Under the pieces are notes generated by a model, which saw only the letters and a list, made by a program, of their open reading frames with translations, ran no database searches and was not told the DNA's origin. A program made the position numbers and the translations under genes. Positions 12,720-34,482 of a stretch of 64,000 nucleotides of DNA are shown here, piece after piece. Every line of letters starts with the position of its first letter. Within the stretch, counting starts at the first letter, position 1. The stretch covers positions 4,864,001-4,928,000 of the forward strand of contig OZ252098.1 of the NCBI GenBank assembly GCA_965248355.1, read 5' to 3'. Origin of the DNA: Candidatus Latescibacterota bacterium. Lineage in GTDB: Bacteria > Latescibacterota > UBA2968 > UBA8231.

Positions 12720-14143
12720 GGCATTGTCCCGATCTTAGTTGAAATAGCACAGGCTCCCATCGTTACGTTTGATACGAGAAATCCCCAAGAAGCCTCGTAT
12801 CGGTAACCCAAGGAGCCTGCCATGAGCAAGCTACAAGCACGGAAGAAGGGCGTCAAACGGACCGTGGCCATCGGCCCCGTGAACCGCCAAGCCACCGCGT
12901 CGATGGACGATCTGGAGACTCGCATCGAGGTCATCCAGCTGCTGATCCCTTTGGGTCTGCAGGCGGTCTCGGAGGAGCTGCAGCAGTCGGTCGAGGCCTT
13001 GGCCGGACCTCGGTATCAGCGCAAGGGTCCGGATCAGGCGTTGCGCCGCTGGGGGGCGCAGGCCGGGTCGGTGTACCTGGGCGATCAGAAACTGCCGGTC
13101 GAGGTGCCGCGCGTGCGCGATGTGGTCCGCGGCACCGAGGTCCCGCTGGAGGCCTATCAGGCCCTGCAGACGCCGAGGCAGATGGACCAGGGGCTGTTGT
13201 TGCGGGTGCTGAAGGGCTTGGCCACGCGCAACTACGAGGCCTGCGCCGAGACCGTCCCGCAAGCCTTCGGTCTGTCCCGTTCCTCGGTCTCTCGCCGGTA
13301 CGTGAAAGGCACGGCGCGCAAGCTGGCCGAATTCCAGCAGCGATCCTTGGAAGGCTACGACCTGGTGGCGCTGTTTCTGGACGGCAAGAGCTTCGCCGAC
13401 GAGGAGATCCTCATCGCCCTGGGTGTGACTCTGGAGGGCCAGAAGGTGCCCTTGGGCTTCGTGCAGGCGGCCACCGAGAACGAGCGCGTCTGTCGCCGCT
13501 TCCTGGCGGAGCTGGTCGAGCGGGGCCTGCAATACGAAGCCGGGCTGCTCGTGGTGATCGATGGAGGCAAGGGCCTGTACAAGGCGGTGCGGTCGGTGCT
13601 TCAAGGCCATGCCTGCGTGCAGCGATGCCAGTATCACAAGCGCCAGAACGTGGTCTCGTACCTGCCCAAGAGCGAGCAGGCCGGCCTTCGTCGAAAGCTG
13701 GAAGCGGCGTATGGGCACTCGACGTACGAGGAGGCCCAAGCCGCCCTGGAGGCGCTGAAACCGGGGTTGCAGTTGATGAACCAGTCGGCCCTGCGCAGCT
13801 TGGAGGAAGGCCAGCAAGAAACCCTCACGCTCCACCGCCTGGGCCTGATGCCGATGCTGAAGGCCTCCTTCCGTACCACCAACTGTATCGAGAACGTCAA
13901 CAGTCTCCTGGAGCAGTTGACGCACAACGTGCGGCGCTGGACCAACTCGTCGCAGCGTCACCGCTGGGTCGCCACGGCGTTGCTTGACATCGAACCTCGC
14001 CTCCGCCGGGTCAACGGCTACCACCACCTGCCGATGCTCCGGCAAGCGCTCCAAGCCGAGCTCGGCATCCAGCAGCTCGCGATGACGGGCTGACTCATCC
14101 ACTCGAGCCTGGGCTACGTTTCAACTGAAAATGGGACTTGCCC
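12720..14143 (+). mobile_element. IS256-family insertion sequence, 1424 bp, 8-bp target duplication CTCTGTGA
   Basis: TSD at 12712-12719 and 14144-14151. Imperfect terminal inverted repeats ggcattgtcccgatcttagttgaaa-tagcacaggctc versus revcomp gggcaagtcccattttcagttgaaacgtagcccaggctc. Confidence 0.92.
12822..14093 (+). CDS. IS256-family (mutator-type DDE) transposase
   Basis: VEVPRVR, LFLDG, VIDGGKGL, QRCQYHK, RTTNCIEN motifs. Confidence 0.93.
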   Translation: MSKLQARKKGVKRTVAIGPVNRQATASMDDLETRIEVIQLLIPLGLQAVSEELQQSVEALAGPRYQRKGPDQALRRWGAQAGSVYLGDQKLPVEVPRVRDVVRGTEVPLEAYQALQTPRQMDQGLLLRVLKGLATRNYEACAETVPQAFGLSRSSVSRRYVKGTARKLAEFQQRSLEGYDLVALFLDGKSFADEEILIALGVTLEGQKVPLGFVQAATENERVCRRFLAELVERGLQYEAGLLVVIDGGKGLYKAVRSVLQGHACVQRCQYHKRQNVVSYLPKSEQAGLRRKLEAAYGHSTYEEAQAALEALKPGLQLMNQSALRSLEEGQQETLTLHRLGLMPMLKASFRTTNCIENVNSLLEQLTHNVRRWTNSSQRHRWVATALLDIEPRLRRVNGYHHLPMLRQALQAELGIQQLAMTG

Positions 14144-14410: not shown

Positions 14411-15138
14411 CTACCACTCCAACCCCACCCCCCGCTGCCGCAAATCCCCCCGCCGGCGCTCATAGTCCGGCATGATCCGCCCGAGGGCCTGCCAGTAATC
14501 CCGGCCGTGGCCCCGGTGCCGCAGGTGCACCAGCTCGTGGACCACCACGTAGTCCACCAGACGCATGGGGGCCTGGATGATCCGCCAGTTCAGCCGTATG
14601 GTCCCGCTGCGGTCGCAGCTGCCCCACCGCCTCTTCTGGTCTGAGATCACCACCCAGGGCATCTCCACGCCAACCCTCCCCCGCCATATCTCCACCCGTT
14701 CCGGCAGCCGCTCGGCGGCATGACTCCGCAGCCACGAGACCAACGCCGCTCGCACGTGATCCCGCTGCCCCGCCCCCGCCGGCGCCGGCACGTGGAGCCA
14801 GCCGCCCCGCAGCTTCGCCTCTCCCGTCTCCCCGGGAAGCACCTTCAGCCGGTAGTGCCGCCCCAGATACATCACGCTCTCCCCGCTCACAAACTCCCGA
14901 GGCGACGGCGGCACTCCGTTTGACCCCACCCCCCGAAGCCGCTGCACGATCCACCCCGCCTTCCGCCGCGCCACCTCGTCCAGCCGGCTGGTAGGGAAGT
15001 CCTCCGGAGCCAGGAGTAACACCCCGCCCGCAGAATCCACCGTCACCGCCACCGTCTTCTTCCGCCGGGCGCTGCGGCGGATGGCGTAGGTAAGGCGGGT
15101 GCCGCCCCAGGTGATGGCGGAGGTCTCCAGGCGGCCGG

Positions 15139-15142
<4 letters not shown>
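14411..15142 (-). CDS. YgjP/DUF45 (M48/SprT-like) metal-dependent hydrolase, type I RM-associated
   Basis: ATG overlaps the hsdR TGA. IRRSARRKKT, FVSGE..YLGR.Y, RRWGSC, LNWRII, DYVVVHELVHL. Confidence 0.9.
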
Positions 15143-18156
<3,014 letters not shown>

Positions 18157-18178
18157 GCGGGTGGCAGTCTCGGTGTGC

Positions 18179-18340
18179 TCAATCGTTCAGACCAAGCGAC
18201 TTCTTCACCTCGGCAGCGGAGTATACCTGCTCCCCACCGTCTCGGACGCGCTGCAGGACTTCGGCAGCGAGATAGTAGTCCTCCATGTCATCAAGACCCC
18301 GTGCGATAGTCTCGCGCAGGCAGACATCCTTGGTGCGCCC
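18179..18340 (-). pseudogene. C-terminal remnant of a CopG/RelB-like antitoxin
   Basis: TGRTKDVCLRETIARGLDDMEDYYLAAEVLQRVRDGGEQVYSAAEVKKSLGL resembles RHH antitoxins lacking their first strand and helix; no toxin next to it. Confidence 0.6.
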
Positions 18341-18350
18341 GGTTTGCATT

Positions 18351-19595
18351 TCAAGCTGTCCCCCGAGCACGCACCTTCCAAAGCCGGACGATGAAGCGGT
18401 CGTCTTCCTCGATCAGGTCCGGCTCCGTCCCGTTGTGGCGCCGCATGGACTCGATGATCCGATTTCGGACGCCCATTCCGTAGTGCTCGATGTAGCCGTA
18501 GTCGCGGAGGATCTCCTTGAGCAGCTCGTTGCGGGCCGCTCGGACCACGCCCTCTCTCATCTTCTCCACGGTGACGCCGTTCGGAAGCCGGCCCGGCGAA
18601 ATGACCTCCAGCCGGTCGCCGTAGAGCGACACCTCGATGTCGGTGCCTTCGCGAGCGTAGTCGCGATGGGCGACCGCGTTCACTATCGCCTCTCGCACCG
18701 CGTCGAGCGGAAAAGCCCGCTTGCGGCGACGCCGGCCTCCTTCAAGCCAGGCAGCGCTTCCCATGTTGCGCTTCACGAAGTCCACCGTGCGGTCGATCAC
18801 TCCCGGCTCCACCGCAGCCCCGCGGCTCGAGACTCGAGACGTCAATGGTCCCCGAATTCGCTCTTCATCGACCGTGTTGTACTCCTTCTCGGAGCCGGGA
18901 AACGCCACCGCGGTCACGCCCGCCTGGGGCAAACGGCGCTTCGGGTGTTCGCCGAACAGCAGGAGCCCGGAAACCGATGCGCCAACATCGTCTCCCACCG
19001 CGACGAGTAGGTCGGAGTTGAGCAGGAGCCGCCGCCAGTGATCGGGGTCGGACCGAGCCGGGACAGAGCGCTTCAGGACATCGCGGTAATAGTTCTCGAC
19101 TCGATCCATGTCGAGAGCTTCGAGCCCCGTGTCCGGCACCGCCTTGATCTCGTATCGGACCAGTTGTGCCGCCTGGTAGAGTCTGGCTTCTTCCTCCCTT
19201 GTGGCCTCGCGTGAAGTGCTTCCGACGCGATTGAACGTAACCCACGCTCCTCCCCGCCTTGCCTTGTGTGGCTTGCCCGAACTGTCTGCGGGGAGTTCCA
19301 CCGACCCCACGGTTCCGTCCGGCATGGCGACGGTGCTCCATACGGGAAGGACCGCAGGCTGAAGGTTGTTCTGGGCGATGTTCATCACCCACTCCTCGGC
19401 CTCCTCGCGGCTCCTGGTCAGTCCGGTAATTCGCCGATCCTTCTCCACACCGAGCAGAATGACGCCTCCCTCCAGGTTCAGCAGGGCGGACATCTCCTTC
19501 GCCAGGGAATCGGGATGGACATCGTCGCGTTTGAACTCGACGCGCGAGTTCTCCCGGTTGGCGATAAGTTCGAGCAGTTCCGTTCGGTTCATCAC
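18351..19595 (-). CDS. AlbA_2 (Schlafen-like) domain plus HATPase_c_4 (RecG-C-like) protein
   Basis: ENSRVEFK, ALLNLEGGVILLGVE, REAIVNAVAHRDY, LEVISPGRLP, RN...GYIEHYGMG. Confidence 0.9.
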   Translation of the reverse strand: MMNRTELLELIANRENSRVEFKRDDVHPDSLAKEMSALLNLEGGVILLGVEKDRRITGLTRSREEAEEWVMNIAQNNLQPAVLPVWSTVAMPDGTVGSVELPADSSGKPHKARRGGAWVTFNRVGSTSREATREEEARLYQAAQLVRYEIKAVPDTGLEALDMDRVENYYRDVLKRSVPARSDPDHWRRLLLNSDLLVAVGDDVGASVSGLLLFGEHPKRRLPQAGVTAVAFPGSEKEYNTVDEERIRGPLTSRVSSRGAAVEPGVIDRTVDFVKRNMGSAAWLEGGRRRRKRAFPLDAVREAIVNAVAHRDYAREGTDIEVSLYGDRLEVISPGRLPNGVTVEKMREGVVRAARNELLKEILRDYGYIEHYGMGVRNRIIESMRRHNGTEPDLIEEDDRFIVRLWKVRARGTA

Positions 19596-22319
19596 TCAAA
19601 ACCCGTACTTCCGCCGCCGCCTCTCGAACGCCTCGCGGCCGCCTTCCAGAATCTCTTCAACGAGTTTGCGCACCGAAGGGGAATCGATCGAGCCGGTGTG
19701 CTCGGGCACGACACGCGCCTGCCCGCGGTCCGCCTCCCCGGCGGCTGATAGTCCGACGATCAGCTCGGCGTCACCGAGCACGGGAATGTTCGCGTTGTGG
19801 GTCGAGAAGATGAACTGCCTGCGCTGCTTCTCCTCGCGCATGCGCGGCACGATGCCTTCGGTGATGAAGCGGTTGTCGAGGTCGTCCTCGGGCTGGTCCA
19901 CGATCAGTGGGGCGCCTGATTCGAGGAGCAGAAGCAGGAGTACCGCAGTCGCCTTCTGTCCCGTTGAGAGCTCTTCCAGAAGTTGCCACGCCGGAGGCTC
20001 CCCCGCTGATACGGTGTTGAGGCGGATCGCCGTCGTGGGGGCGAGCTCCAGCTCTTCGATCCGCATGAGCACCTCGGCCTCGCCGCCCGCGAGCCGTTCC
20101 GCCTGACCCGGGGTGATTCCGTACGTCCGGCGGAGCGCGTCGGCGCCCGAGCGGCACGTTTCGACGAATTGCGTCAGGGACAGTTCGGAGGCGTTTCGCA
20201 GACTTTCGATGCACTCCGACATGCGCCCGCCGATCTCGTCCCGCAGCAGCTTGAAGAGCGGCTCACGGTCTCCGGCGCCCGTCACCTCCACCTGTACGCG
20301 GCCGCGAAGCTCCTGGCTCACCTTCCTTGCCGCTTCATCCAGGTTGCGGAACTCGGCGGCCTTGACGTCCTCCCATTCGGCCAGCAGCGTACGGCGCCGA
20401 CCGGCGTGCTCGTTCTCCAGCCGGCGCACGAGCACAAGGCGCTCTTGAAGTGGGCGCAGTTCCTCGATCTGGCGGCGAAGGCGGATGAACTCCTCCCCGT
20501 CCACGCCTGACTTTTGCAGTTCTCGCAAAATCCTCTCGTACTCTGCCTGAACCTGTTGCCGTCGTACGTCCCAGTTGGTCCGCAACCGTTCGACGTCGTG
20601 GTCTGCGCGCGTTAACGCTTGGTCCAGACTCTCCGCACTGCCCCGGATGGCCCCCTCCAATTCAGAGAGCGTTCCAGTCGCTTGGGAGAGGATGTCGCGG
20701 CCAGGCAGGCCCTCGAGGGCCCGTTTCGACAGGAAGGCAAGGTCGATCGGCAGCTCTCTTCGCAGCATCTCCAGCGCCTCGTGAAACGGCGCCAGCCGCT
20801 CGGGAACCGAATCGAGCACCCGTTCCTCGCGCACGAGCAGGCTCTGCTCGCGCAGGCGTTCCTCGAGGCCCACTTCCTGGAATCGCTCGAGCGTTTGCTC
20901 CAATCCGGGAAGGGCGGCGAGACGCTCTTCAACCGACGCGATCTCAGCGCGCGCGTCGCACAAGGCACTGCGGTTCCGGGCAAGGTCCCGGCTCAACGAC
21001 GCCTTGCGGCGAGATAGGGACTCATCGGGCGCGACGAAGCGGTCGAGCAACCGGGTGAGTTTGTCGGGGCTTCTCGCAAGCTCCGAGATCTCGTGTTGGC
21101 CGTAGGCTTCGATTCTCGGGAGAATGTCCGTTGGCGCGAGATGCAGTACCGTGCCGTTCTCCCCGCGGACCAGCGGCGGATTGGGAATGGTCCGCTCGAT
21201 GCGATACTCGTGAAGCCCAGGGCGGCGCACGCGGACGAGCAGGGAGATTTTGGTTCCGTTGCGCAGCACGTGGCCCACGATCCCATCATGCGCCTTGCGC
21301 GCCTCGTCGCCGATCGGTTCAAGTCCGAGCGCACTGCGGATGCTCTCGACAACGGTCGACTTCCCGGCGCCGCGGCCCCCGACGAGAACGTTCAGATTGG
21401 GATTGAGGCGCACGGTCACGCCGTCGAGGAAACCGCCTTCCCACCCGACCGTGACGATCTCCATGTGCTCGTCGGGCGCAAACGCGCCTTCCTTGGTATT
21501 CAGGCGAATGCGCGAGCCCGGGTCCAGGAAGGCTTGGCGCAGCCCGTCTATGGAAACCTCCTGCATCTTGATCCAGCAGGTCGCCGAGGGCGCCTCAAGG
21601 TCGCCGGGCTCCACGATGTCCTTTGCGTTGACGACAGCGACTGCAACGCCGTCTTCGGGTGTGTGACCACGGCGGTAGTCGGGGTTCCGGTTCTCGAGGA
21701 TCTCGCGAATGTTCGGCTGCAGATCATCGGTGACGCCGGGGATCTGGACGGCGAGGAGGTTCTCATCCCGCCATGCGCGGATCCTCGGCTGACCCGACAG
21801 GACCTTGAAGAGGCCACCATCGTTGGTGACATGCGCCGCAATGGCAACTCCGCCCTGGCTGTCAACGGCCGCCAGGATCTCCGCAAATGCCTTGGCGGCG
21901 GGCTCACTGGACGGGGTCGTTTCGCGGACGCCGAATTCTCCAAGGTACCGGCCGAGTTGGTCGTCGCCTGTATCCGGCGGGTACAGGCACAACAGATGCA
22001 CGCCCTCGGAAGAGGACAACTCGAACCCGGGGAACATGCGAATCGGACGGTTGCGCGACGCGGCTTGAAACGCCGCAACGCCCTCTACGTTGTTGTGATC
22101 CGTGATGGCCAGCACCTCGATGCCCGCTTGCACGGCCTTGTCAACGATCTTCCGGGCATGGCAGAGCGCGTCTCCTTGGGCAGCCTGCCCCCGATAGGTC
22201 CGGGCATAGTGGTGCGGATTCACCTGCAGTGCGCACCGATAGAAACGCGCGCCACCGGGGGGCTGAGCCGTCATGCCAGCGGCGTCCTCGCCCAACCGCA
22301 AGGGGACAGTCCTTGTCAT
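19596..22319 (-). CDS. PHP-domain plus coiled-coil ABC/SMC-type ATPase (TrlF-like / Ppl-like defence protein)
   Basis: N-terminal AITDHN, GFELSSSEGVHLL, IAAHV; Walker A GGRGAGKS; long coiled coil; signature LSTGQK; Walker B LIVDQPEDDLD; STHN. Confidence 0.88.
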   Translation of the reverse strand: MTRTVPLRLGEDAAGMTAQPPGGARFYRCALQVNPHHYARTYRGQAAQGDALCHARKIVDKAVQAGIEVLAITDHNNVEGVAAFQAASRNRPIRMFPGFELSSSEGVHLLCLYPPDTGDDQLGRYLGEFGVRETTPSSEPAAKAFAEILAAVDSQGGVAIAAHVTNDGGLFKVLSGQPRIRAWRDENLLAVQIPGVTDDLQPNIREILENRNPDYRRGHTPEDGVAVAVVNAKDIVEPGDLEAPSATCWIKMQEVSIDGLRQAFLDPGSRIRLNTKEGAFAPDEHMEIVTVGWEGGFLDGVTVRLNPNLNVLVGGRGAGKSTVVESIRSALGLEPIGDEARKAHDGIVGHVLRNGTKISLLVRVRRPGLHEYRIERTIPNPPLVRGENGTVLHLAPTDILPRIEAYGQHEISELARSPDKLTRLLDRFVAPDESLSRRKASLSRDLARNRSALCDARAEIASVEERLAALPGLEQTLERFQEVGLEERLREQSLLVREERVLDSVPERLAPFHEALEMLRRELPIDLAFLSKRALEGLPGRDILSQATGTLSELEGAIRGSAESLDQALTRADHDVERLRTNWDVRRQQVQAEYERILRELQKSGVDGEEFIRLRRQIEELRPLQERLVLVRRLENEHAGRRRTLLAEWEDVKAAEFRNLDEAARKVSQELRGRVQVEVTGAGDREPLFKLLRDEIGGRMSECIESLRNASELSLTQFVETCRSGADALRRTYGITPGQAERLAGGEAEVLMRIEELELAPTTAIRLNTVSAGEPPAWQLLEELSTGQKATAVLLLLLLESGAPLIVDQPEDDLDNRFITEGIVPRMREEKQRRQFIFSTHNANIPVLGDAELIVGLSAAGEADRGQARVVPEHTGSIDSPSVRKLVEEILEGGREAFERRRRKYGF

Positions 22320-22642
22320 GCTTCCTCCGGTTCTGTCGGCTTCGCGTCAGGGCGCCCACGCTGCTCGAACCGCAGGGTCACGCCGCAGGCCGCGGCGATC
22401 TTGGTCACGGTTCCCAATCGGGGGTCCCGGTTTCCCGACAAGCCGCGGGAGAGAGCCACGCGGTCGACGTCGGCTTTCCGCGCGATGGCTGAAACACCTC
22501 CCTGGGCCGCCGCGACGTTCCGAAACGCCTTCATCAAGAGGCGCGGGTCGCCATCCGATTCCTCGATCGCGGCGTTGAGGTACGCTGCGACATCCTCCGG
22601 TGTCCGGAGGTGCTCACTGGCTTCACGGGCTCTGACGGGCAT
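22316..22642 (-). CDS. Addiction-module antidote HTH protein (HI1420-like), orphan
   Basis: ASEHLRTPEDVAAYLNAAIEE.DGDP..L..A.RNVA.AQGG...IA...L...LS....P.L.T pattern; its stop overlaps the PHP-ATPase start. Confidence 0.85.
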   Translation of the reverse strand: MPVRAREASEHLRTPEDVAAYLNAAIEESDGDPRLLMKAFRNVAAAQGGVSAIARKADVDRVALSRGLSGNRDPRLGTVTKIAAACGVTLRFEQRGRPDAKPTEPEEA

Positions 22643-22796
22643 GCCGGTTCTCCTCCAACCGCGACACTACGACATAGTGGACGATCCTGACCGCATCCTT
22701 TGTAGCCGTTTGGCTACACTGTGTCAAGTGGCAGGGGCGTGTCGAGAGCGGCGCTTCTCGGCTCGAATTGTTCATTGGTGATATGTATGCTGAGCC

Positions 22797-22887
22797 TTGC
22801 TCCTCGCCAGCGGCGACCAAGACGTTGCAGGCGACGGACATCCGCCGGGCTCAAGACTACTGGCGAGACTATCCGGAGAGGGCGTGA
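22797..22887 (+). pseudogene. 3' remnant of an addiction-module killer (RelE/HigB-like) toxin
   Basis: LLLASGD-(frameshift)-KTLQATDIRRAQDYWRDYPERA* matches the typical LLL.GGDK..Q..DI..A..YW.DY C-terminus and ends 1 nt before the antitoxin ATG. Confidence 0.65.
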
Positions 22888-22888
22888 C

Positions 22889-23251
22889 ATGGCACGACGC
22901 AGTCGAGACTGGAACGAAGGACTGGCGCAGGACCTGCGCGACCCGGACTTCGCACGCGAATTCCTTCTCGCCGCCATGGACGAGGGACTGCCAGTCCAGA
23001 CCGCCCTTGGAAAGGTGATTCGGGCCATGGGCGTCAAGGAGTTCGGCGAGCGGGCGGGGATGGCGGGTCCGAACGTCCTGCGTGCGATTCACCCGCGGCA
23101 CAACCCGACGCAGGCCACGTTGAACCGGTTGCTCAAGCCGTTCCAACTACGGCTGAGTCTGGCTCGGCTCGAAGGTCCCGAAGGGCCCCACTCCGGGATG
23201 CCTTCATCAACAGCCGAGGGTCGCCAGCCGCTTCCTCGATCACGGCGTTGA
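22889..23251 (+). CDS. HTH antitoxin (addiction-module antidote-like)
   Basis: MARRSRDWNEGLAQDLRDPDFAREFLLAAMDEG...ALGKVIRAMGVKEF...NPTQATLNRLLKPF; GGAGAG RBS. Confidence 0.8.
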   Translation: MARRSRDWNEGLAQDLRDPDFAREFLLAAMDEGLPVQTALGKVIRAMGVKEFGERAGMAGPNVLRAIHPRHNPTQATLNRLLKPFQLRLSLARLEGPEGPHSGMPSSTAEGRQPLPRSRR

Positions 23252-23295
23252 GGTACGCCGCGACTGTCCTCCGGTGGCCGGAGGTACTCGCTGGG
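23197..23295 (-). repeat. Decayed duplicate of the 5' part of the antidote gene (about 22522..22622)
   Basis: gccttcatcaacagccgagggtcgccagccgcttcctcgatcacggcgttgaggtacgccgcgac aligns with gccttcatcaagaggcgcgggtcgccatccgattcctcgatcgcggcgttgaggtacgctgcgac. Confidence 0.85.
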
Positions 23296-23389
23296 CAGGT
23301 GCGTGTCGACCCTGCGATCGCCGCCCTGCCCGGCTCCCGAGCGGCGCGGTGAGGAGCTGTCTCCCCGGTGCTTGCCCCGCTCCCGTCGC

Positions 23390-23432
23390 ATTCCCCGAGG
23401 TGGAGCCCGTTCCGCTGGCCTGGGGGTCATGC
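23390..23432 (-). repeat. Strongly decayed duplicate of the hsdR 5' end
   Basis: cgaggtggagcccgttccgctggcctgggggtcatgc versus hsdR cgaggtggagctcgttccagccggtggtcttgggggtcatgc. Confidence 0.7.
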
Positions 23433-23440
23433 CGACGATC

Positions 23441-24427
23441 TCACTGCGTGATGTAGAAACTCCGTTGGAAACTCTCCCTGCTCTCGACCGCTATGCCGTA
23501 CTCCAGGGCCTTCTTTACCTTGCCGGTCGGCTTGGCGTCGGCGTCTGCGACGAGCAGTGTCGTGACCTTCTTGGAGATCCCGCTGGCAACCGTTCCCCCG
23601 GCGTTCGTAATCCTCGCCGCCAGCACTTCGTCCCGGAACCCGGTGAAGACGAACACCTGACCGCTGAGGTCTGCGTCATGCGCGACTTCTGCAGGCGCCG
23701 GGGCCTCGTCTGTCGGCTCCAATGGCGCGAGACTGATGCTGCCGCCGAGGAGCCCGCGAACCGCCCGATACACCCCCAGCGTCGCGTGGCAGTCCTCGAG
23801 CGCGCGGTGGCTGCCCTGGACAGGGACATCGAGCTCTTCGGCTACGGCCGCCAGCCCGTACGGCCCGCCTAGCGGCACTCGTCGCGCCATGCGCATGGTG
23901 CACACCCATTCGTTCTCGGCGAAGGTCATCCCCATGAGCCGGGCATTGTGCTCCAGAAACCTGCGGTCGAAGTGGGCATTGTGCGCGACGATCGGGGCAT
24001 CGTCGACGAAAGCGGCGACTCGCGGCAGCACTTCGTCTATGGTGTCCGCCTCCGCCACCATTTCGTTGGTGATGCCGGTCAGCTCACGAATCTGCTTGGG
24101 GATGTTTCCCGAGGGACGTACGGACTCGTTCAGCACCCGTTCGCGCGTAGATCCATTTTGGGTCTCGCTGCGGATGACCGCGATTTCGATGATCGCGTCA
24201 CGCTCCGGGTTCAGTCCGGTCGTCTCGATGTCAAGGACACAGAACGGAGACCCATCGTCGTCGGGCTCGTCCGGCTCGACGGGGCGCTCGACCATAGGGC
24301 GCCGCCGGCCGCGGGCGGTGAAGTCGGTTGAGTCATCGGTTCCGACATCCTGTATGCCGATGGTTCCGATGCCGGCCACAAAGCCAACCGCGAGCACCTG
24401 TCGCGCCTTGTCGGTGAGCGTCATCAT
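23441..24427 (-). CDS. DEDDh 3'-5' exonuclease (DnaQ-like) with C-terminal BRCT domain and hydrophobic N-terminus
   Basis: VLDIETTG, VAHNAHFD, HRALEDC; BRCT LSGQVFVFTGFRD...GGTVASGISKKVTTLL...KVKKALEYGI. Confidence 0.88.
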   Translation of the reverse strand: MMTLTDKARQVLAVGFVAGIGTIGIQDVGTDDSTDFTARGRRRPMVERPVEPDEPDDDGSPFCVLDIETTGLNPERDAIIEIAVIRSETQNGSTRERVLNESVRPSGNIPKQIRELTGITNEMVAEADTIDEVLPRVAAFVDDAPIVAHNAHFDRRFLEHNARLMGMTFAENEWVCTMRMARRVPLGGPYGLAAVAEELDVPVQGSHRALEDCHATLGVYRAVRGLLGGSISLAPLEPTDEAPAPAEVAHDADLSGQVFVFTGFRDEVLAARITNAGGTVASGISKKVTTLLVADADAKPTGKVKKALEYGIAVESRESFQRSFYITQ

Positions 24428-24504
24428 CGGTCCTGCACATGCAGCCTATGGCGCTGGGCGGGAAGTGTCGCCGCTGATTGGGTCAGCAGAACTCCCGGCG
24501 TAGG

Positions 24505-24577
24505 AGGCGAACTCGACGGCGGAGTTCTCTGCGTGGTGGAACTCGTCCCAGCCGGTTGCCTTTGGGGTCATGCGGGT
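24505..24577 (-). repeat. Decayed hsdR 5' end still overlapping the hsdS stop (original hsdS-hsdR junction)
   Basis: ATG at 24571 overlaps the hsdS TGA and reads MTPKATGWDEFHHAENSAVE versus hsdR MTPKTTGWNELHLAENPAVE. Confidence 0.9.
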
Positions 24578-25825
24578 TCGGGATCCGGGGTGACGCGAAG
24601 CTCGCCGGTGAGGAGGACGGACATGAGGGCGGACTTGATGATCGTGAGCTGGTCGACTCGGTTCTGTTCGGCTCCTACTCTGCGTTGTATCGAGTCCAAC
24701 ATCGATACTATTGTCGCCTGTTCCTCCACCGACGGCACGGGAATAACTGTCGCCAGCAGACTCCCCCGGCTGATGTTGACTTGGCTCACCCCAGGTGTTG
24801 CGGTGGAACGAAGCCTCTTCTGCATCGCCGGAGTATTGAGCAGGTAGGAAAGCCAATAGCCAGTTCCCAGTCTGGGTTTTACCCGAAGGCGCAGCAGATA
24901 CGACGCGAACGATACTCTCTCCTGGTGATCGAAAACCCCAACCTTTCCGACTAGTTCGGCACTGTTGGTTCGATTGAAGAGTACCTCACCGCTGGATAGT
25001 AGGAGTTCTTTGGGGATTCTTTCCACTGCTAGGTACTTCACATCATCCAAGCTTACCCTACCTTCCCGGAGATTGCCCATTCGCAATATGGGTATCCCGC
25101 TGTCGTTGCCTTGCAAGCTGTCCGACGTTCCGTAATCGCAACTGGCAATTTCGCCGATACTGCTGGTTCGCCATTCCTCCGGTATCTCTCCAATCTCCGT
25201 TTGCTTGAACCGCGTGTGCCGGTCCGGCAGGCCCCGCGTGAGCAGCTCTTCCATCAGGCCGCGCTTGACGACCTGCACTTGGTCGATGACCGCCTGGGTC
25301 TTCTCGATGGCGTCGTCCACCGAGGAGAGGATGGCGGCAATCTTGTGCTGCTCGGGAAGAGGCGGAAGCGGTATTCCGACGCGCGCGATGTCACCCACGC
25401 GTAAACCGAATCTTGTAATGCCATTCGCATACCTATGAAACTGCCGCTTGGCATTACTCGTGCGGAGAGCATAGCGCAGATATTCGCCGTCTAGTGCCGA
25501 TTTCAGGGGGCGCAGGATTGCGAGATGGTAGCCACAAATCACATCAGCTACTTGCTCGCGAACCACCGCAGGGACGCCGATATCATCAGGCGTCTCCGAA
25601 TCTTTGGTAATGATCACATCGCCCACCTGCAATCTGCAATTCCGTATTTCGCGTTCCGTGGCTGTCGCCTCCATGTATACCAAACCAGAGTGGAGGACGC
25701 TGTTGTTGTATACGTCAGAGTAGTTGCAAAGCCTGACTTTCTTTTCTCCGGGTGCAATCTTCTTGTCGACGCTGCTAAGGCGCAGGTCGACAATATCAGC
25801 CAAGGTAGCCGTAGGCCAACCTTCG

Positions 25826-25839
<14 letters not shown>
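24568..25839 (-). CDS. hsdS: Type I restriction-modification specificity subunit S
   Basis: Two low-GC TRDs separated by the conserved IPLPPLPEQHKIAAILSSVDDAIE...GLMEELLTRG...FKQTEIGEIPEEW; ends KSALMSVLLTGELRV. Confidence 0.95.
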
Positions 25840-27670
<1,831 letters not shown>

Positions 27671-27725
27671 TGGATGGTATCCTGCGCCGTCCCCGGACCG
27701 AACCGCGGCCTGAGTTCAAGTCGCC

Positions 27726-29570
27726 TCAGAGGTCTGTCTCGGCCTCGGCTTCAGGCGGGGAGATGAACAGTGGAACCCGTGACTTGTCGCCATTGATCAA
27801 GGCGTCGATCTCCTCCAGATCGGCAAGGAACTGGTCGGCATGCACTCGGCAATAGCGCCAGCAGCTGAACTCGGGCGCCTTGCCGATGGCCGCAATGGCT
27901 CGCTGTGCCTCATGCGAAGCGCGACCAGCTGCCATTGCGTCCCCGATGGCCCAAGAGGCAACTGCCATGCACTGGTAGTAGCTTGGTCCTCTGTCTCTCT
28001 CGATGCCCATCTGATCGAGGTGCGCAACTCGAGAGAATGGTCCAGGCTCGACTGTGCCGGACTCGCCCCAGATGGCCATTCCATAGTTGAAGGCATCCTG
28101 CACATCCATCTCATCGATGCACTCGTCGGGAGCCCGGAACAGTCCTGCGGCTTCCGAGCATCTTCCAAGGGCCATGTATGCCAGCCCCAGTTCGTTCCTT
28201 GCGGCCTTGAGCTTTGTCTCAGGCATGTCGCCCTGATGAATAATCCGCAACCAAATGGGCACGGCGATTCTCATCTGGGACGAAGATCGATCCAGCGTCC
28301 TTGCGAGCCACATCTGCTCATCGAAATCCAGGGCTTTGACGGCTGCCGAGTCAGCAATGTCGTCCGGCCCGCACGAGCGTACCCGAGAGATTGCCTCCCT
28401 CACCATCGGTGGACGCACGGCCTCTTGGGACTCCAGAACCCGGAGGGCGTCTTCCTCTGCACCCTCGGGATCATCGCTGCGTGCCCGAATGCGAGCCCTC
28501 GCCAAGTAGGCATCCGGTTGGTCATAGCCGGCATCCATTGCGCGCGACACCAGGGAAGCCGCCAGATCAGGCTGGCCGTCCCTTTCCCGGAGCTCCGAGA
28601 GACGGAACAGGATCTCCCCGTCCTCCGGGTGGGAAGTCTCAATCCTGCGAAGCATGTCCTCTCTAGTCTCCATCGACTCATGCCGCCCCTGGCGCGCGGG
28701 ATTGCCCACCCGGAGGATATAGTCGAGGGCGCCATCGCGGTCGTCCCAGTTGCGTCCGGCGATCTCCCGGACGAGGGCCCGGTACTCCCGCGCCAATCGA
28801 CTTCTCGGACGATCCTTGGTAAACACGACCTGGTTCAGGAGGGATAGGCTGTCATAGCGATGGACGATCATCGGGGCGCGCCGGAAGAGGAGCTGTTCCT
28901 GAAACGCCTTGATCTTGTCGTCCAGGATCTTGTCTTCGTCGTCCAGGTCTGGAACGTTGGACATGACGAAGTGGAGCTCGATGGGCTTGTTGCGCGGTTC
29001 CCCCGATTCGGCGCGAATGTCCGCGACGACGCGTCTCAACCCGCGCAGGTTCTGTTCGTTCGGGAAGAAAAGGATCACCACGGCGTCGGGAAGCTGCCGG
29101 GTACAGATGCCACCCGTGTCGGTATGCCCTGTCCGTGAGTCAACCAGGACATAGTCAGGCCTGAGGACACGGTTCCATTGCTCCTTGAGATCCTCGAACA
29201 AAAGGTAACCGTCCCGCTCCTCGTATAGCAGGGCCCAGTCGATCTGCTGGAAGTTCGCAGCGTATGTCTCGGGACGCCCTGACGGCATTATCCACAGCCC
29301 GCCGGCCAGTTGGCCGACTGAGGCTTCGCTGATGAACCGGCCGGCTTCGGGGGCCTGCCCCGAATCGAGATACTCGCTGACGAAGTCGATGATCCCGGGG
29401 ACCGGTTCCCGGGGCTGCATGGCCTCGAAGGTATCGAGTCCGGGCGCCTCCAGGTCGAAGTCCACCGCCAGTACCCGACGACCCTTGTTGGCGAGCTCAA
29501 GGGCTGTGTTTACCAAGGCCATCGTGCGGCCCACGCCTCCCTTGAAGGAGTAGAAGGTCGCTATGTACAT
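27726..29570 (-). CDS. ParA/MinD-like ATPase, KGGVGR-motif variant, with C-terminal TPR-like helical repeats
   Basis: TFYSFKGGVGRTMAL, VDFDLEAPGL, YVLVDSRTG; C-terminal Ala/Leu helices such as AYLARARI and LGLAYMALGR.SEAA. Confidence 0.85.
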   Translation of the reverse strand: MYIATFYSFKGGVGRTMALVNTALELANKGRRVLAVDFDLEAPGLDTFEAMQPREPVPGIIDFVSEYLDSGQAPEAGRFISEASVGQLAGGLWIMPSGRPETYAANFQQIDWALLYEERDGYLLFEDLKEQWNRVLRPDYVLVDSRTGHTDTGGICTRQLPDAVVILFFPNEQNLRGLRRVVADIRAESGEPRNKPIELHFVMSNVPDLDDEDKILDDKIKAFQEQLLFRRAPMIVHRYDSLSLLNQVVFTKDRPRSRLAREYRALVREIAGRNWDDRDGALDYILRVGNPARQGRHESMETREDMLRRIETSHPEDGEILFRLSELRERDGQPDLAASLVSRAMDAGYDQPDAYLARARIRARSDDPEGAEEDALRVLESQEAVRPPMVREAISRVRSCGPDDIADSAAVKALDFDEQMWLARTLDRSSSQMRIAVPIWLRIIHQGDMPETKLKAARNELGLAYMALGRCSEAAGLFRAPDECIDEMDVQDAFNYGMAIWGESGTVEPGPFSRVAHLDQMGIERDRGPSYYQCMAVASWAIGDAMAAGRASHEAQRAIAAIGKAPEFSCWRYCRVHADQFLADLEEIDALINGDKSRVPLFISPPEAEAETDL

Positions 29571-29574
29571 GGCA

Positions 29575-30135
29575 TCACGCCGCGGGCCTCAAACGGAAGT
29601 GGGCCTGGTCTCTGCGCATGGCCTCGGTGACTTCCAGCGTCCGGAATGGGCTGGGTACAGCCGTTGACACCGGTCGGGAGAGTGATCCTCCATCCGCCAG
29701 GTCCTCGAGATGCTTCATGATCCCGGGCAGTGCCACAAGCCGGATGTACCGGTCGTTTCCCTGGGTCTGGATCGTGAGTCCATTCTCCCAGCGATTGAGG
29801 GACGCTTCCCCGAGCCCGGTCACTTCGGCGAATTTCGCGCGCGTCATCCCGTAGCTCTCTCTGATGCGTCGAATCTCGCCGGGTGAGAGCACACCGAAGT
29901 GCTGGCAGACCGCCTCGTGCTTGAGTCGCTCCGCTTCTTGGTCAAGATACTGGAAGTCGCAGGAGGTGCAGCGACGCAACGGCACATCGACCGTCAACTC
30001 GACACCGGACTTATCGGAGCCGTAGGTGAATGTGTGGCGATGCGCCAGAGTCCTGACCGCGGCGGTTCCGCATTGGGGGCACTCAGGATCCCCGTGGCCA
30101 AGGCTTGGGCTCGGTGTTGCTTGATGCGATTCCAT
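29575..30135 (-). CDS. MqsA-family antitoxin (Zn ribbon plus XRE HTH) with C-terminal tail
   Basis: CPQC...CTSC, then LSPGEIRRIRESYGMTRAKFAEVTGLGEASLNRWENG. Confidence 0.9.
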   Translation of the reverse strand: MESHQATPSPSLGHGDPECPQCGTAAVRTLAHRHTFTYGSDKSGVELTVDVPLRRCTSCDFQYLDQEAERLKHEAVCQHFGVLSPGEIRRIRESYGMTRAKFAEVTGLGEASLNRWENGLTIQTQGNDRYIRLVALPGIMKHLEDLADGGSLSRPVSTAVPSPFRTLEVTEAMRRDQAHFRLRPAA

Positions 30136-30143
30136 GGTAGCGC

Positions 30144-30497
30144 TCAGGTGTCCCGTTCCGAGTAGTGAAAGCTCCTTCCGATGATCTTGCCGGATCCCAG
30201 TTGGAGCTTGACGTAGAGTTGGGGCTGTGCGGGTTCGAGGTCAATCTTCATCACGTAGCCTCTGGCTCCGGGTGGTTTCTCCAACTCGATTGCCTCCAAA
30301 GGGTGCCCGCTCTCGATCTTGGATGCGATCAGTTCCCAGGCGCTCGTATCCGTGAAGTGACTATCGAGTAGTCCATCCGGGTTCCGGACCTGTCCCGGAC
30401 GCCAGTCAGTCGGCTGGGCATAACTGAACGCAGTCACACGGGCCCTCTTCCTCCTTGCGAGCGTCACCAACTGGCGTCTCGTTGCATCGTCAATCAT
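30144..30497 (-). CDS. Putative MqsR-like (RelE-fold) toxin
   Basis: 117 aa directly upstream of mqsA; C-terminus LYVKLQL....IIGRSFH resembles the YIKL...SFH ending of MqsR-like RNases. Confidence 0.65.
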   Translation of the reverse strand: MIDDATRRQLVTLARRKRARVTAFSYAQPTDWRPGQVRNPDGLLDSHFTDTSAWELIASKIESGHPLEAIELEKPPGARGYVMKIDLEPAQPQLYVKLQLGSGKIIGRSFHYSERDT

Positions 30498-30752
30498 ATG
30501 ATATTCCAAGCAAACCACAAGCCCCTTTCTCGTTTCATATGATAGATTTCATGCGCGAGACCCGGCTCTCTCACCCGCTCAGGTGCTCACAAGTGCACTC
30601 TCGGTGGTCCCGGTTGCAGCTCCTGCGAGCCCGAGACCGCCCTCTCCGCGTCCCTGGCAGGCGTCAGTCGCGGGAATGGTCGTGGGCGATGTCGGGCAGA
30701 CCGACCGGCGAAGGGTGGGGAAACCAGGCGGCCCGAGAGCTCCCAGGCCCTT

Positions 30753-32746
30753 TCATCCCCCCGCCGCCACGGCTTCGCCGTCGGCGGTCAGCACCAGCAC
30801 CTCCGCCTCCGCGTAACGCCTGAAGGCATCCGCGCTCGTGAAGTGGCGGAATCCGTGGTCGTTTGCGATCTGCAGGGTCTCCGGCTCTTCCCCGAGCAAG
30901 AGCGCCACCGGCTGGCTGTAGCTGTCCTGGAGCCCATTCGGCCAGGCCAGATCGAGTATGGCGAGCGGATGTCCCGTGTCCGGGTGCGAGAGCTCGTATC
31001 CCAGTCTCCCTTCGGGGAGTCCGTGGCCCTGGACCCACTCGTTCAGATCCATGAGGATGGCCTCTTCCTCGGCATCTGCGATTCCGCCCGGAACCGCTTC
31101 GGGTTGAGGCGCGCTGACCACGGTGTCCGGGGTTGTCTCGGCGGCATGCTCGGTCGCCCCGTCGTGCAGGAGCTCCCCCAGCAGGGCGTTGGCCGCCTGT
31201 GCGAGCAGGCGTTGGCGCTCCTCGAGGAAACCGAGGTAGTTCCCGGTTTCCCAGAGATCCTCGTCCATCGGAATCCACTGCGAGGCGAGCGCGCCCGGAA
31301 GTCGCGCCTCGATCTCGGGGAAATACTCGGAGGGTGGGAGGTCCCTGATCTGCAGATTCGTGTCCTTGGTCAGGAAGCAGAAATTGGCGATGGCGTTCAC
31401 TTGCGACTTTGAGAACCCGTGCCGGTACAGCATCCCCTTCGGGAAGATGTGATGAACCTCGAGTGCGTTCATGCTGCCCAGCAGCGTACTCTTCAGGGCC
31501 AGCCCCGTTCCCCAATCTCTGGGCGTCCCCAACCCGCGTCATGGCGTACAGCACCGGATAGAAGCGGGCCCCAAGACTCCAGCCACGAAAGTGTGCGGGC
31601 TCGACGCGCAGACTGCCGTGCCAGAGCCTTAGCTGCTCGAGGAGCCGGTCGATGGCTCCGTCGGCGTCCTGGATGGCCTCGAAGTCCTGGTTGAGGATTG
31701 TCTCGGTCGAGCCCGAGAACCGGCCCCACATGGCGCTCTGGAAGTACCAGTACAGGAGTTGGTCCCGCTCGGTGACATCCTCCAGGTGGCCGCCGCGTCT
31801 GTCGATGTACCGGGACATGACGGGCAACGCGTAGCGGCCGAAGAGAACACGATCATGGTCAAGACCCAGACGGCCGTCGATGAGGTTCAAGGCGTTTGTC
31901 GACGCATCGCTCGGTGCGAGCGAGACCATCCTGGATCGCCTCCGTCGGCTCGTCGTGAAGGTGTACGAACCGTGCCTCGCCGGTGACGATGGCGTTCACG
32001 TTCCTCAGGAGCCAATCGAGATTGAAGTCGTACCCGCTCTCTCGCCACCTCTCAAGAATGGACTGCATCCGCTCCCGGCCTTCAGGCCAGGAACCGCAAA
32101 TCTTGGCAAGTGCCAAGTCTCCGTGAGAGAGTTTCGTGCCGCCGCTGTTGACGCGATTGAAGATGTCCACCACCACATCGATCGTCTTGTCGGGACCGGT
32201 GACTTCCTCCACGTGGAGTTCGATGTCCCGGATGCCCAGAATCTGGTTGAGGCGCTCGCTGAATTCACCGATCCTGGCCGCCAATTCCGGCACTTGTGCC
32301 CAGCGAGTGTACTGTTCGCCCAAACCGTCGTGTCCTCTCTGCATCAACTCCGACACATTGATCCAGAGGGGATCGTCCTGCATATGCATCGGCTGATAGA
32401 ACCTGAACTCCTCGTTCTGGAGATGGAAGTAGAGCCCCGTGAAGGTCGTGGCGTTGCCGTCGAAGAATGCGGGCGGTTCTCCGCGGATGATCCCGTAGAG
32501 GGAGGTCACCCGCTGCTGGCCGTCCAACAGGAGCCTCACAACGCCCGGCGCAAGATCCTGTTCGCCCCGATGAGTCACGTCCTCCGCCGCTGTCGCCCAT
32601 ACAAGCAGGCTCCCAACCGGATGGCGGCGGTACAGTGAATCCATCAGGCCGCGGACCTGGTCGCGATTCCAGACGTACCCGCGCTGGAACTTCGGCAGCG
32701 CCATGTAACCGCTATCGATGTGGTCGAGGATGGTCGAAACTTTCAC
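30753..32746 (-). pseudogene. GmrSD-like DUF262 + DUF1524/HNH modification-dependent endonuclease, with two apparent frameshifts
   Basis: LPKFQRGYVW, LLDGQQR, IFNRVNSGG (DUF262); continues in a second frame near 31895 (NALNLIDGRLG...) and a third near 31525 (RDWGTG...EVHHIFPK...NAIANF..L...TN). Confidence 0.85.
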
Positions 32747-32809: not shown

Positions 32810-33802
32810 TCATGTGTCATCGGCGAGAGCAATGCGGTTCTCGATCTTCCGCGCCAAGTCCCTGAAGTCACGGTAACACTCCTGGACGGCCGTCTGGTGT
32901 CCGCCGATGGCTCCGTCGGCCGGTTTGAGCATGAACATGGGTTTTCGCGCCTCCTGAGCCAGTGGCATCAGGGAGCGGTAGTCTTTCAGGTGGGCGAGGA
33001 GGTGCGGGTCATCCGAGTCGGAATCAGGGGGGCTGTCACCCGCTTGGACGACGGATTGCCGATACTCACCGGGGATCTGCTCGATCCAGCGCCCGAATGG
33101 CTTGGGCCGATAGATCCGGACCGATTGCCCCATGATGATGTACCCCGCCGGCTGCATCGATCCTTGCGGCAGATCCAACTCCAGGTCCTCCGGTTTCTTT
33201 GCGCGCCGCTCGGACCAGGCTTCCCGCCATTTTCTCAGGGCCGGCCCGACATGGCGCAGTCCCTGCAGGGAGAACAGATCGGGCGCGAGCGGAATGATCA
33301 CATGGTCGCAAGCCACCAGGGAAGCCCGGTTCAGGGGGCCCAGACTGGGGCTCACGTCCACAAGAGCGAGGTCGGCCTCGAACCGTGTTCCGGCGTGGTC
33401 AATGAGTCGGGCGAACGCCGTGGTAACCCGGAAGGCTCGTGAATCACCGGCCAGGCAGAGGGACCATTGATTCCATAGATCGTCCTCTTGCCTGGACAGG
33501 CCGAGGTCGCCGATGAGCAGCCCGATCTTCTCGTCGATTTCTTCGACATGGGGCTCGGAGGCGATGTCTCCGCTTCCGTCGAAGAGCGGCGCGATGTCGT
33601 CGTTGACCGTCTTCCTGGCCGGATCGTTCGACATCTCCTCCATCGCCTCATCGGCCAGGAACATCCCGCTCAGATTGGCCTGAGGGTCCAGGTCGGCCGT
33701 GATGACCCTGCGGCCCTGATCGGCGAACATCCAAGCCAGGTGGTAGACGAGAGAGGTCGTGCCCACTCCTCCTTTGTTGTTGAAGAATGCGACCGTCTTC
33801 AC
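32810..33802 (-). CDS. ParA-family ATPase (defence-island type) with Walker A Lys replaced by Thr
   Basis: AFFNNKGGVGTTSL, DLDPQANL, LVDVSPSLG, IIPLAPDLFS, SLMPLAQEARKPMF. Confidence 0.88.
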   Translation of the reverse strand: MKTVAFFNNKGGVGTTSLVYHLAWMFADQGRRVITADLDPQANLSGMFLADEAMEEMSNDPARKTVNDDIAPLFDGSGDIASEPHVEEIDEKIGLLIGDLGLSRQEDDLWNQWSLCLAGDSRAFRVTTAFARLIDHAGTRFEADLALVDVSPSLGPLNRASLVACDHVIIPLAPDLFSLQGLRHVGPALRKWREAWSERRAKKPEDLELDLPQGSMQPAGYIIMGQSVRIYRPKPFGRWIEQIPGEYRQSVVQAGDSPPDSDSDDPHLLAHLKDYRSLMPLAQEARKPMFMLKPADGAIGGHQTAVQECYRDFRDLARKIENRIALADDT

Positions 33803-33818: not shown

Positions 33819-33959
33819 TCACGCTGATGAAGGGACTTCCGCCGCGAAGGCGCAGATCGCCTGCCGGATCTTGTCCAGGTCGCGGGCGGCGGCCGTGAAC
33901 TCGATCCGGTCGCTCTCTCCGCCGGCGATGAGAGCGCTCAGTTCCCGGTCGTCAGGCAT
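33819..33959 (-). pseudogene. N-terminal fragment of an AlbA_2-domain protein
   Basis: MPDDRELSALIAGGESDRIEFTAAARDLDKIRQAICAFA, then diverges and stops at 46 aa. Confidence 0.7.
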
Positions 33960-34305
33960 TGGGCCTGGCCCTGGAGGTCGCCGACGGAGGGCGTCCGTCG
34001 GCGATGCCGGACAGCTCGACCGGTGGGCGGTCGGGAAATCTGGCGATGAGCGACAGGCTGCCGCCCATGGCCTCCACCGTCTTGCGCAGCGTCGAGAGCA
34101 ACAGATCGCTTCGCTGCTCGAGCCGGGAGATGCCGTCCTGCGAGATACCCAGCTCACGTGCCAGGTGCACCTGGGTGAGCCGCCGGGCCTTGCGGAGTTC
34201 GCGCAGGTTCATCTCCTCGGCAAGCAGCTCGGCCGCCCGATCCTCGACCTTGCGGCGACGGGCGGGATCGAGCCGCGCGATCTTGTCTTCCACGTTCAGG
34301 GGCAT
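33952..34305 (-). CDS. XRE-family HTH antitoxin (HigA-like), orphan
   Basis: LRELRKARRLTQVHLARELGISQDGISRLEQRSDLLLSTLRKTVEAMGGSLSLIARFPDRPPV. Confidence 0.88.
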   Translation of the reverse strand: MPLNVEDKIARLDPARRRKVEDRAAELLAEEMNLRELRKARRLTQVHLARELGISQDGISRLEQRSDLLLSTLRKTVEAMGGSLSLIARFPDRPPVELSGIADGRPPSATSRARPNA

Positions 34306-34482
34306 CACGAGTCTCCTTCGTTTGCGAGCCTGGCGGCCGGGCAATATGTCCCCGGAAACATATGCCGTCAAGGGCAGGGGAGGCCTTGCAGCAAGGCTAC
34401 CCGAAGCCCTCCGCCCTTGCCCGAAATCCCCCGGTCCCTTCATTCACGGACCGAACCCATCCTGGCAAGGAAAGGAGAAGCC

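Follow-up and report, generated by a model that had tools for sequence, protein, structure and literature searches.

A compact cassette of three genes, here called g1, g2 and g3, was analysed in a window of 64,000 nucleotides (nt) from a Candidatus Latescibacterota bacterium (assembly GCA_965248355.1, contig OZ252098.1, positions 4,864,001 to 4,928,000 of the forward strand). The genes are predicted to encode an MqsR-like toxin candidate, an MqsA-family antitoxin and a ParA-type ATPase fused to helical repeats (Table 1). The three genes form a conserved, self-contained unit, and a C-terminal tail of the antitoxin occurs together with the ATPase-TPR gene. We propose, with a probability of about 0.55, that the cassette is a switch of the class called TA-ParA, in which the tail of g2 would serve as the docking element for g3.

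Conservation of the three-gene cassette

Relatives were collected from metagenomes by g1 alone, using an alignment of 18 rows; 80 of 138 confirmed relatives were kept, giving 64 distinct loci (first 250 nt of g1). By tblastn, an MqsA gene is present in all 59 loci with at least 300 nt of downstream sequence, and the ATPase in 34 of the 39 with at least 900 nt (the misses being L053, L059, L064, L066 and L071). A count based on open reading frames (ORFs) gives the ATPase in 35 of 42, of which 26 are complete with at least 590 amino acids (aa). Intergenic gaps in the related loci are mostly between -4 and +16 nt.

Close relatives of g3 were found in three of 185,579 species genomes, namely two Candidatus Binatia metagenome-assembled genomes (MAGs) and one Candidatus Latescibacterota MAG, and in all three g1 and g2 precede g3, with 58-79% identity. 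None of these genomes has the neighbour genes of the window; their flanks differ, and homologues of hsdM, hsdS, the GmrSD pieces, the second ParA and the exonuclease found around the cassette here occur in none of 83 related loci. Because the three-gene arrangement recurs in unrelated flanks it is not due to chance, and because the flanks differ and hsdM is missing from those 83 loci, hsdM lies outside the cassette. The synteny of the three genes, for which the earlier note on this DNA had proposed a genome search, is therefore conserved.

Concerning plasmids, 12 records match, five of them with a full-length g3 at 34-36% identity. The plasmids of Rhizobium gallicum and Massilia forsythiae carry a g3 that is 36% identical and also encode g1 (133-138 bits against the g1 profile) and MqsA, in reading frames that overlap or nearly do so. 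It could be argued that an MqsRA-like toxin-antitoxin (TA) pair and a single-gene ParA-TPR defence protein are two independent units that travel together by linkage only, since two-gene versions without g3 exist (the five tblastn misses listed above) and the ATPase family stands behind an unrelated gene pair on a Polymorphobacter plasmid. We consider this very improbable, because the link between the ATPase-TPR gene and MqsRA-like pairs, on which the earlier note had made its proposal depend, holds down to 36% identity of g3, with overlapping or near-overlapping frames, and because the tail of g2 tracks g3, as described below.

The distribution has also to be compared with that of an addiction or maintenance module, which would stabilise mobile DNA, with ParA positioning or controlling the copies, the TA pair killing segregants and no sensing of invaders. 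The five plasmid records with full-length g3 relatives would suit such a role, as would the conjugative nature of four of the 12 matching plasmids, the recombinase genes observed near the cassettes of L099, L100 and L076, and the patchy occurrence: with the present query, full-length g3 relatives were found in two of 168 genomes of the phylum Latescibacterota (the window's own and G104) and in none of nine genomes of the window's genus. Against it, the loci are for the most part on chromosomes and differ in their flanks, neither a ParB-like partner nor centromere repeats are seen in the window, g3 always stands behind the antitoxin with gaps of a few nt, and the arginine P-loop and 300-residue repeat domain are foreign to partition ParAs; in particular, the neighbouring genes contain no ParB domain, so the locus does not qualify as ParABS. 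A maintenance role is accordingly given little credence here, and the TA-ParA switch remains the preferred reading.

As regards the Polymorphobacter megasporae plasmid (L100:2091-4842), the full-length ATPase-TPR gene, 34% identical to g3, follows genes for 76 and 221 aa that match no Pfam family and show no likeness to g1 or g2. This pair may be another TA type recruited by ParA-TPR. The end of the 221-aa protein, GFDLRR, was tried as a g2-type tail and rejected, with a score of 1.3 bits that was reached by 73 of 200 shuffles.

The toxin candidate

No Pfam, NCBIfam or PADLOC entry matches g1. A HMMER scan of 1.84 billion representatives returned a family of 440 clusters at 50% identity (E<=0.001), 284 of them at E<=1e-10. 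Of the 150 hits listed, 74 that cover most of the query were picked by eye and aligned with the window protein, giving 75 sequences. Invariant in all 75 are Y95, K97, S109, F110 and H111, which fall in a C-terminal motif Y95-x-K97 ... G-R-S-F-H111.

The AlphaFold2 (AF2) model of g1 has a mean predicted local distance difference test score (pLDDT) of 95.9. In a structural alignment against 48,161 chains its top match is E. coli MqsR (3hi2_D; Z 9.1, root-mean-square deviation (rmsd) 2.3 Å, 86 of 91 residues), followed by RelE1 at Z 5.3 and then by many RelE, HigB, YoeB and ParE toxins at Z 4-5. We infer from this model that g1 has an MqsR-like (RelE/BECR) fold and is an RNase-type toxin candidate; the RelE-type fold on which the earlier note had made its proposal depend is thus recovered, as far as the model tells. 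Foldseek against PDB gave no match at E<=0.001, and a sequence-profile search against PDB gave chance hits only. The MqsR family PF15723 does not match g1, nor any of the 75 family members at E<=1; these members have no Pfam family in common, and hhalign of g1 with E. coli MqsR is not significant (0.6% probability). Both proteins end in the pattern Y-x-K ... S-F-[K/H], whose tyrosine in MqsR is the catalytic Tyr81, and the invariant Y95 of g1 stands opposite Tyr81 in a weak hhalign alignment of 16 columns. Tyr81 and Lys56 are named as the essential catalytic residues in the published account of MqsR (Yu et al. 2022, PMC9636575).

The antitoxin and its C-terminal tail

The g2 product scores above both MqsA cut-offs (TIGR03830, 65.2 bits for a cut-off of 61.8; PF15731, 31.9 for a cut-off of 30) and has a conserved zinc ribbon of two CxxC pairs (C19, C22, C56 and C59) with a C-terminal helix-turn-helix (HTH). 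From its sequence g2 is classified as an MqsA-family antitoxin and predicted repressor. hhalign with E. coli MqsA (93.9% probability) pairs g2 residues 18-143 with MqsA residues 2-130 of 131, leaving 17 extra residues at the N-terminus and a tail of 43 residues at the C-terminus, in good agreement with the tail of about 40 residues past the HTH described in the earlier note.

Within this tail, a variable linker is followed by a conserved motif, RFRxL ... FxLR, for which a profile was built from an alignment that left out the short proteins of L035, L043 and L059. The profile reaches at least 10 bits in 31 of the 35 antitoxins with the ATPase next in line and in none of the six without it (L035, L053, L059, L064, L066 and L071). 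Four ATPase-linked antitoxins fall below 10 bits: the ATPase of L036 departs from the others in its C-terminal half, L043 has both a broken ATPase and a broken tail, and L093 and L094 reach 5-6 bits. The premature stop found in each of L035 and L059 is followed directly by sequence still recognisable as the remains of the motif. The ATPase-less loci fall in at least two or three places on a quick tree whose search was unfinished and which was used only to see that they occupy different places. Support for the tails of the Rhizobium and Massilia antitoxins is weak, at 9.2 and 4.9 bits, scores equalled by 2 and 3 of 200 shuffles, respectively. The tail thus covaries with the ATPase-TPR gene, and we propose its motif as a putative docking element for g3.

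The ParA-type ATPase

A match of 171.7 bits (cut-off 90) assigns g3 to NF047398, 'KGGVGR-motif variant AAA ATPase'. Its motifs are KGGVGR15T, D37-x-D39-x-EAPG and D139-YVLV-D144, and the residues K10, G11, G12, G14, R15, D37, D39, E41, A42, P43, G44, D144-S-R-T-G and N174 are invariant in all 30 homologues compared. The model of g3 has a pLDDT of 89.7, with the repeat half mostly above 90. Its N-terminal domain resembles MinD (4v02_A; Z 24.2, rmsd 2.7, 230 residues) and ParA (8ray_A; Z 23.1), and Foldseek finds Soj/ParA at TM 0.70-0.77, so that, as modelled, the N-terminal half has the ParA/MinD fold.

The other half, which the earlier note had called TPR-like, is modelled as helix pairs throughout residues 300-562, with a beta hairpin and a helix after them. 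Residues 313-597 resemble the TPR domains of Pins/LGN at Z 12.1-12.3, values below the caution level for repeat proteins, so that this likeness of the model is suggestive; the Pfam families TPR_2 and TPR_14 match at E ~0.004, below the cut-off. The TPR assignment is thus the weaker one: a sensor-like repeat domain is clear, while strict TPR identity is only moderately supported.

The PADLOC model PDC-M28B matches only the ATPase domain of g3 (E 7e-31, profile positions 131-349 of 438), and PDC-M28A matches neither g1 nor g2 nor any of six neighbouring genes; the locus is therefore not counted as PDC-M28.

Comparison with known systems

In a preprint that is computational only, Li, Burroughs & Aravind (bioRxiv 10.64898/2026.10.19.760177, 22 Oct 2026) describe, under the name TA-ParA, ternary systems made of a type II TA pair and a ParA that carries a fused sensor, TPRs being the commonest kind, and they name MqsR-MqsA in the subtype with BECR toxins. 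According to its main text, the core of the ParA clade is KGGxG[K/R][ST] with an extra first lysine, DxD after beta2 and a DhhhhD Walker B, and an immune assemblage called 'ConB2' has arginine for the Walker A lysine and PG after the sensor motif. The core is present in g3 as K10-G-G-V-G-R15-T, D37-F-D39 and D139-YVLV-D144, with little or no variation among the 30 homologues; arginine at the second Walker A lysine (R15) and the PG (P43, G44) are those found in all 30 homologues; a TPR-like sensor is fused C-terminally to the ParA; and a BECR-fold toxin (g1) and an HTH antitoxin (g2) adjoin g3 in conserved order. Because every sequence feature listed there is found, the cassette belongs to a class whose existence had been predicted in print before. 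As far as the preprint was compared, no structural difference was found, the ternary complex and the switch being predicted there too, with a sensor that detects the invader and a ParA switch that reorganises the contact between toxin and antitoxin.

The earlier note had known of no described system of this composition, a statement overtaken by section 24 of the preprint, where TA-ParA with MqsR-MqsA is described. A literature search on KGGVGR, PDC-M28, TA-ParA and MqsA-plus-ATPase gave no further relevant paper. A search of the preprint's main text for 'C-terminal tail' and 'NurA', which did not extend to the operator palindrome, found neither term; since these two are absent, the tail motif, the palindrome and the fourth gene presented below may be additions to it.

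With E. coli MqsR-MqsA the cassette shares the order of toxin before antitoxin, the MqsR fold modelled for g1, the zinc ribbon and HTH of g2, the C-terminal Y-x-K ... S-F-[K/H] of the toxin and a likely palindromic operator. It differs in that g1 falls outside PF15723, g2 is longer by 17 N-terminal and 43 C-terminal residues, and a third gene is present. The operator of E. coli MqsA also differs from the palindrome TCATATGA found here.

In the toxin-antitoxin-chaperone (TAC) systems MqsRAC, HigBAC and CmdTAC, too, a third gene is added to a type II TA pair, and a C-terminal extension of the antitoxin ties it to the third protein. In those systems the third protein is a SecB-like chaperone; in the present cassette a ParA NTPase of 614 aa, which carries a repeat domain, takes its place. 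A further parallel, drawn in the preprint, is that with STAND/Avs proteins, in which a P-loop NTPase and superstructure-forming repeats act as a sensor coupled to a lethal effector; here, however, the NTPase is of the SIMIBI/ParA type and not an AAA+ STAND, and the effector is a separate TA pair, not a fused domain.

Proposed mechanism

In the switch that we propose, the zinc-ribbon domain of g2 would neutralise g1, g2 would repress the operon by binding the TCATATGA palindromes, and g3 would be held on the complex via the conserved C-terminal tail motif of g2. A cue from a phage or other invader, received at the repeat domain of g3, would switch the state of the ParA by nucleotide-dependent dimerisation; the switched ParA would pull on, hide or expose the antitoxin, and the freed g1 toxin would cut RNA and halt the infected cell.

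Several points weigh against this proposal. The toxicity of g1 is read from the modelled fold, with no match to an MqsR or RelE sequence family, and no counterpart of the essential Lys56 of MqsR was identified in g1. The arginine that replaces the P-loop lysine of g3 may weaken or abolish hydrolysis. The positives of the tail profile (31 of 35) are partly circular, because most of the sequences scored had also gone into training the profile, and the 0 of 6 amounts to about three events, placed on the unfinished quick tree, because the sequences are interrelated. Related loci are often flanked by housekeeping genes rather than by defence islands. No homologue of g3 was found among 50,697 phage records, a result that is uninformative on triggers, and the literature search found no experiments on any TA-ParA system, only the computational preprint.

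The tail data bear also on a TAC-like alternative, in which g3 would be a stabiliser: its repeats would bind the tail and keep g2 folded or safe from proteases, and a competitor in the groove or a loss of ATP would lead to decay of g2 and release of g1. Published work on HigBAC describes such a sequence of events, in that a phage protein disrupts the interaction of antitoxin and chaperone, upon which the antitoxin is destabilised and the toxin activated. The g2 tail, a linker with a short motif, is similar to the chaperone-addiction tails of TAC antitoxins, and antitoxins without g3 are also without the tail, twice through a stop just before it; stop codons ahead of the tail after loss of g3 are what would be expected if a free tail were harmful. 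These data, however, also fit a plain docking role, and g3 shows no SecB or other known chaperone fold or family, its matches being to the ParA fold and to ParA families only. The preprint, in its main text, also treats the ParA architecture as a theme distinct from the SecB systems. We therefore judge a stabiliser unlikely, although it deserves more weight than the maintenance or independent-unit explanations. The suggestion of the earlier note that an ATPase-TPR protein may replace SecB is no more than an analogy, since the modelled fold of g3 is that of ParA and there is no sign of chaperone action.

Returning to the switch, a more specific version can be put forward tentatively, and we hold it possible though less probable than the general one. 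The RFRxL ... FxLR motif would be a portable docking peptide in a groove of the ParA-fused repeat domain, and the dimer of the arginine-P-loop ParA a nucleotide-gated clamp on the antitoxin; an invader protein competing for the groove or flipping the state of the ParA would free the MqsR-fold RNase, and some cassettes would add a NurA-like nuclease as second effector. If true, it would amount to a new means of coupling type II TA pairs of any kind to a sensor, unlike chaperone addiction of the SecB type.

ParA/MinD ATPases are textbook positioning machines. That they also serve as immune switches is, to date, a prediction on paper only. The link between tail and ATPase offers a concrete hypothesis, open to test by mutation, for the wiring of an NTPase to a TA pair, and the palindrome offers a handle on regulation. 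Since the cassette is compact (~2.8 kb) and close relatives are carried by plasmids of culturable Rhizobium and Massilia, the TA-ParA prediction is directly testable. If confirmed, the system would join antitoxin turnover and chaperone addiction of the SecB type as a third general way to arm TA pairs against phages.

Predicted operator palindrome and promoter region

Only two copies of the palindrome TCATATGA are present in the 64-kb window, against 0.16 expected, and both lie at the start of g1, where they form a 10-nt direct repeat 41 nt apart, the sole repeat family near this gene. Of 57 related loci, 50 have one copy or more in the 160 nt upstream of g1, compared with two copies in 322,311 nt elsewhere in those loci; in 20 of the 57 there are two copies, the spacing being mostly 39-42 or 51-53 nt. 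In relatives one copy includes a -10 box, TATGAT, and in 29 of them a TTGACA-like box stands 16-18 nt upstream of a TATGAn within the palindrome. Palindrome and promoter boxes in the relatives look like an autorepressed TA promoter, and we take TCATATGA as the predicted operator. In the window itself a sigma-70 scan of 27500-30900 returned no promoter, and no convincing -35 box could be placed. At the operator position, L084 and L085 have TCAATTGA instead of TCATATGA, which may be a co-varying operator variant.

Layout, composition and genomic setting

The arrangement given in the earlier note, that is, g1, g2, a 614-aa ATPase with KGGVGRT and then hsdM, agrees with the coordinates, with spacings of 8 nt (g1-g2), 4 nt (g2-g3) and 55 nt (g3-hsdM). 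A terminator scan found no minus-strand terminator-like site between the three genes. An alternative GTG start of g1 at 30518 would give 124 aa.

Table 1. Coordinates in the window of the cassette, its parts and the adjoining hsdM gene
Feature	Position	Strand	Description
g1	30497..30144	minus	ATG start, 117 aa, toxin candidate
g2	30135..29575	minus	186 aa, predicted MqsA-family antitoxin/repressor
g2 tail motif	29584..29652	minus	residues 162-184, consensus RFRxL ... FxLR, after variable linker
g3, whole gene	29570..27726	minus	614 aa, FKGGVGRT at residues 9-16
g3, N-terminal ParA/MinD-type NTPase domain	28701..29570	minus	residues 1 to ~290
g3, C-terminal helical-repeat (TPR-like) domain	27780..28673	minus	residues 300-597, predicted sensor
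Palindrome, upstream copy TCATATGA(TA)	30535..30544	minus	predicted MqsA-type operator
Palindrome, second copy TCATATGA	30494..30503	minus	overlaps g1 ATG
hsdM	27670..25826	minus	downstream of g3

The GC content of g1, g2 and g3 is 0.58-0.62 compared with 0.674 for hsdM, and their third-position GC is 0.70-0.74 compared with 0.93 for hsdM (0.94 for hsdR and 0.64 for hsdS), which confirms the codon style of lower GC than hsdM reported in the earlier note. The AT-rich upstream region reported there holds for the nearest 60 nt (GC 0.417) but not for 200 nt (GC 0.61), so the AT-richness is confined to the stretch immediately upstream of g1.

Judging from gene content, the surroundings are a defence island. 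On the downstream side the cassette is followed by hsdM, hsdS, an exonuclease-BRCT gene, a PHP-AAA_21 gene, a Schlafen/AlbA_2 gene, and then hsdR and a YgjP-like gene; on the upstream side lie a split GmrSD-like gene and a second odd ParA. The type I restriction-modification (R-M) genes are scattered over 14411-27670 (minus strand), and hsdM/hsdS are separated from hsdR by an RNase_T-BRCT exonuclease, a PHP-AAA_21 ATPase and a Schlafen/AlbA_2-HATPase_c_4 gene; a YgjP-like peptidase gene comes after hsdR and a Mutator transposase gene at 12822-14093. The cassette is mobile, and it is inserted beside the type I R-M operon without depending on it. In 23 related loci sampled, the flanks vary: xanthine-dehydrogenase-type and further housekeeping genes are found, as are GmrSD-HNH, ParB-methylase, HORMA, HipA and recombinase genes.

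The GmrSD / HEC-05-like type IV restriction gene is present in two minus-strand ORFs, 30753-31532 and 31859-32746; the N-terminal one is GmrSD_N (E 5e-27), the C-terminal one lies in another frame ~326 nt away, and the gene, judging from its sequence, is probably frameshifted. Upstream of these pieces, the second ParA-like gene (32810-33802, minus strand) encodes a 330-aa AAA_31 protein with a Walker A of KGGVGTT, in which the P-loop lysine is missing in another way than in g3, and it adjoins an XRE-type HTH gene (33952-34443).

Near-identical DNA is present in sequencing runs of nine studies. Parts of the three genes are found in two metatranscriptome runs of one study; being present as contigs alone, these data cannot prove transcription, strand or ends. 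In one metatranscriptome contig (run X19, depth 4.7), positions 30456 and 30499 are directly joined and 42 nt, or 14 codons, at the 5' end of g1 are missing; this interval is uncovered in the second run of the same study, while two DNA runs cover it without a gap. The missing stretch may reflect strain variation or an error of assembly.

A fourth gene in some relatives

Ten distinct related loci have a fourth gene directly after the ParA-TPR gene, on the same strand, encoding 370-378 aa with 50-65% identity to one another (for example L038:7773-8885, L076:7742-8875, L062:3933-5051, L057:4405-5541 and L068:7800-8918). It is missing from the window and from L007-L009. The gene has no Pfam match at 1e-5 and no PADLOC match, and two of five show a faint likeness to NurA (E 0.004-0.036).

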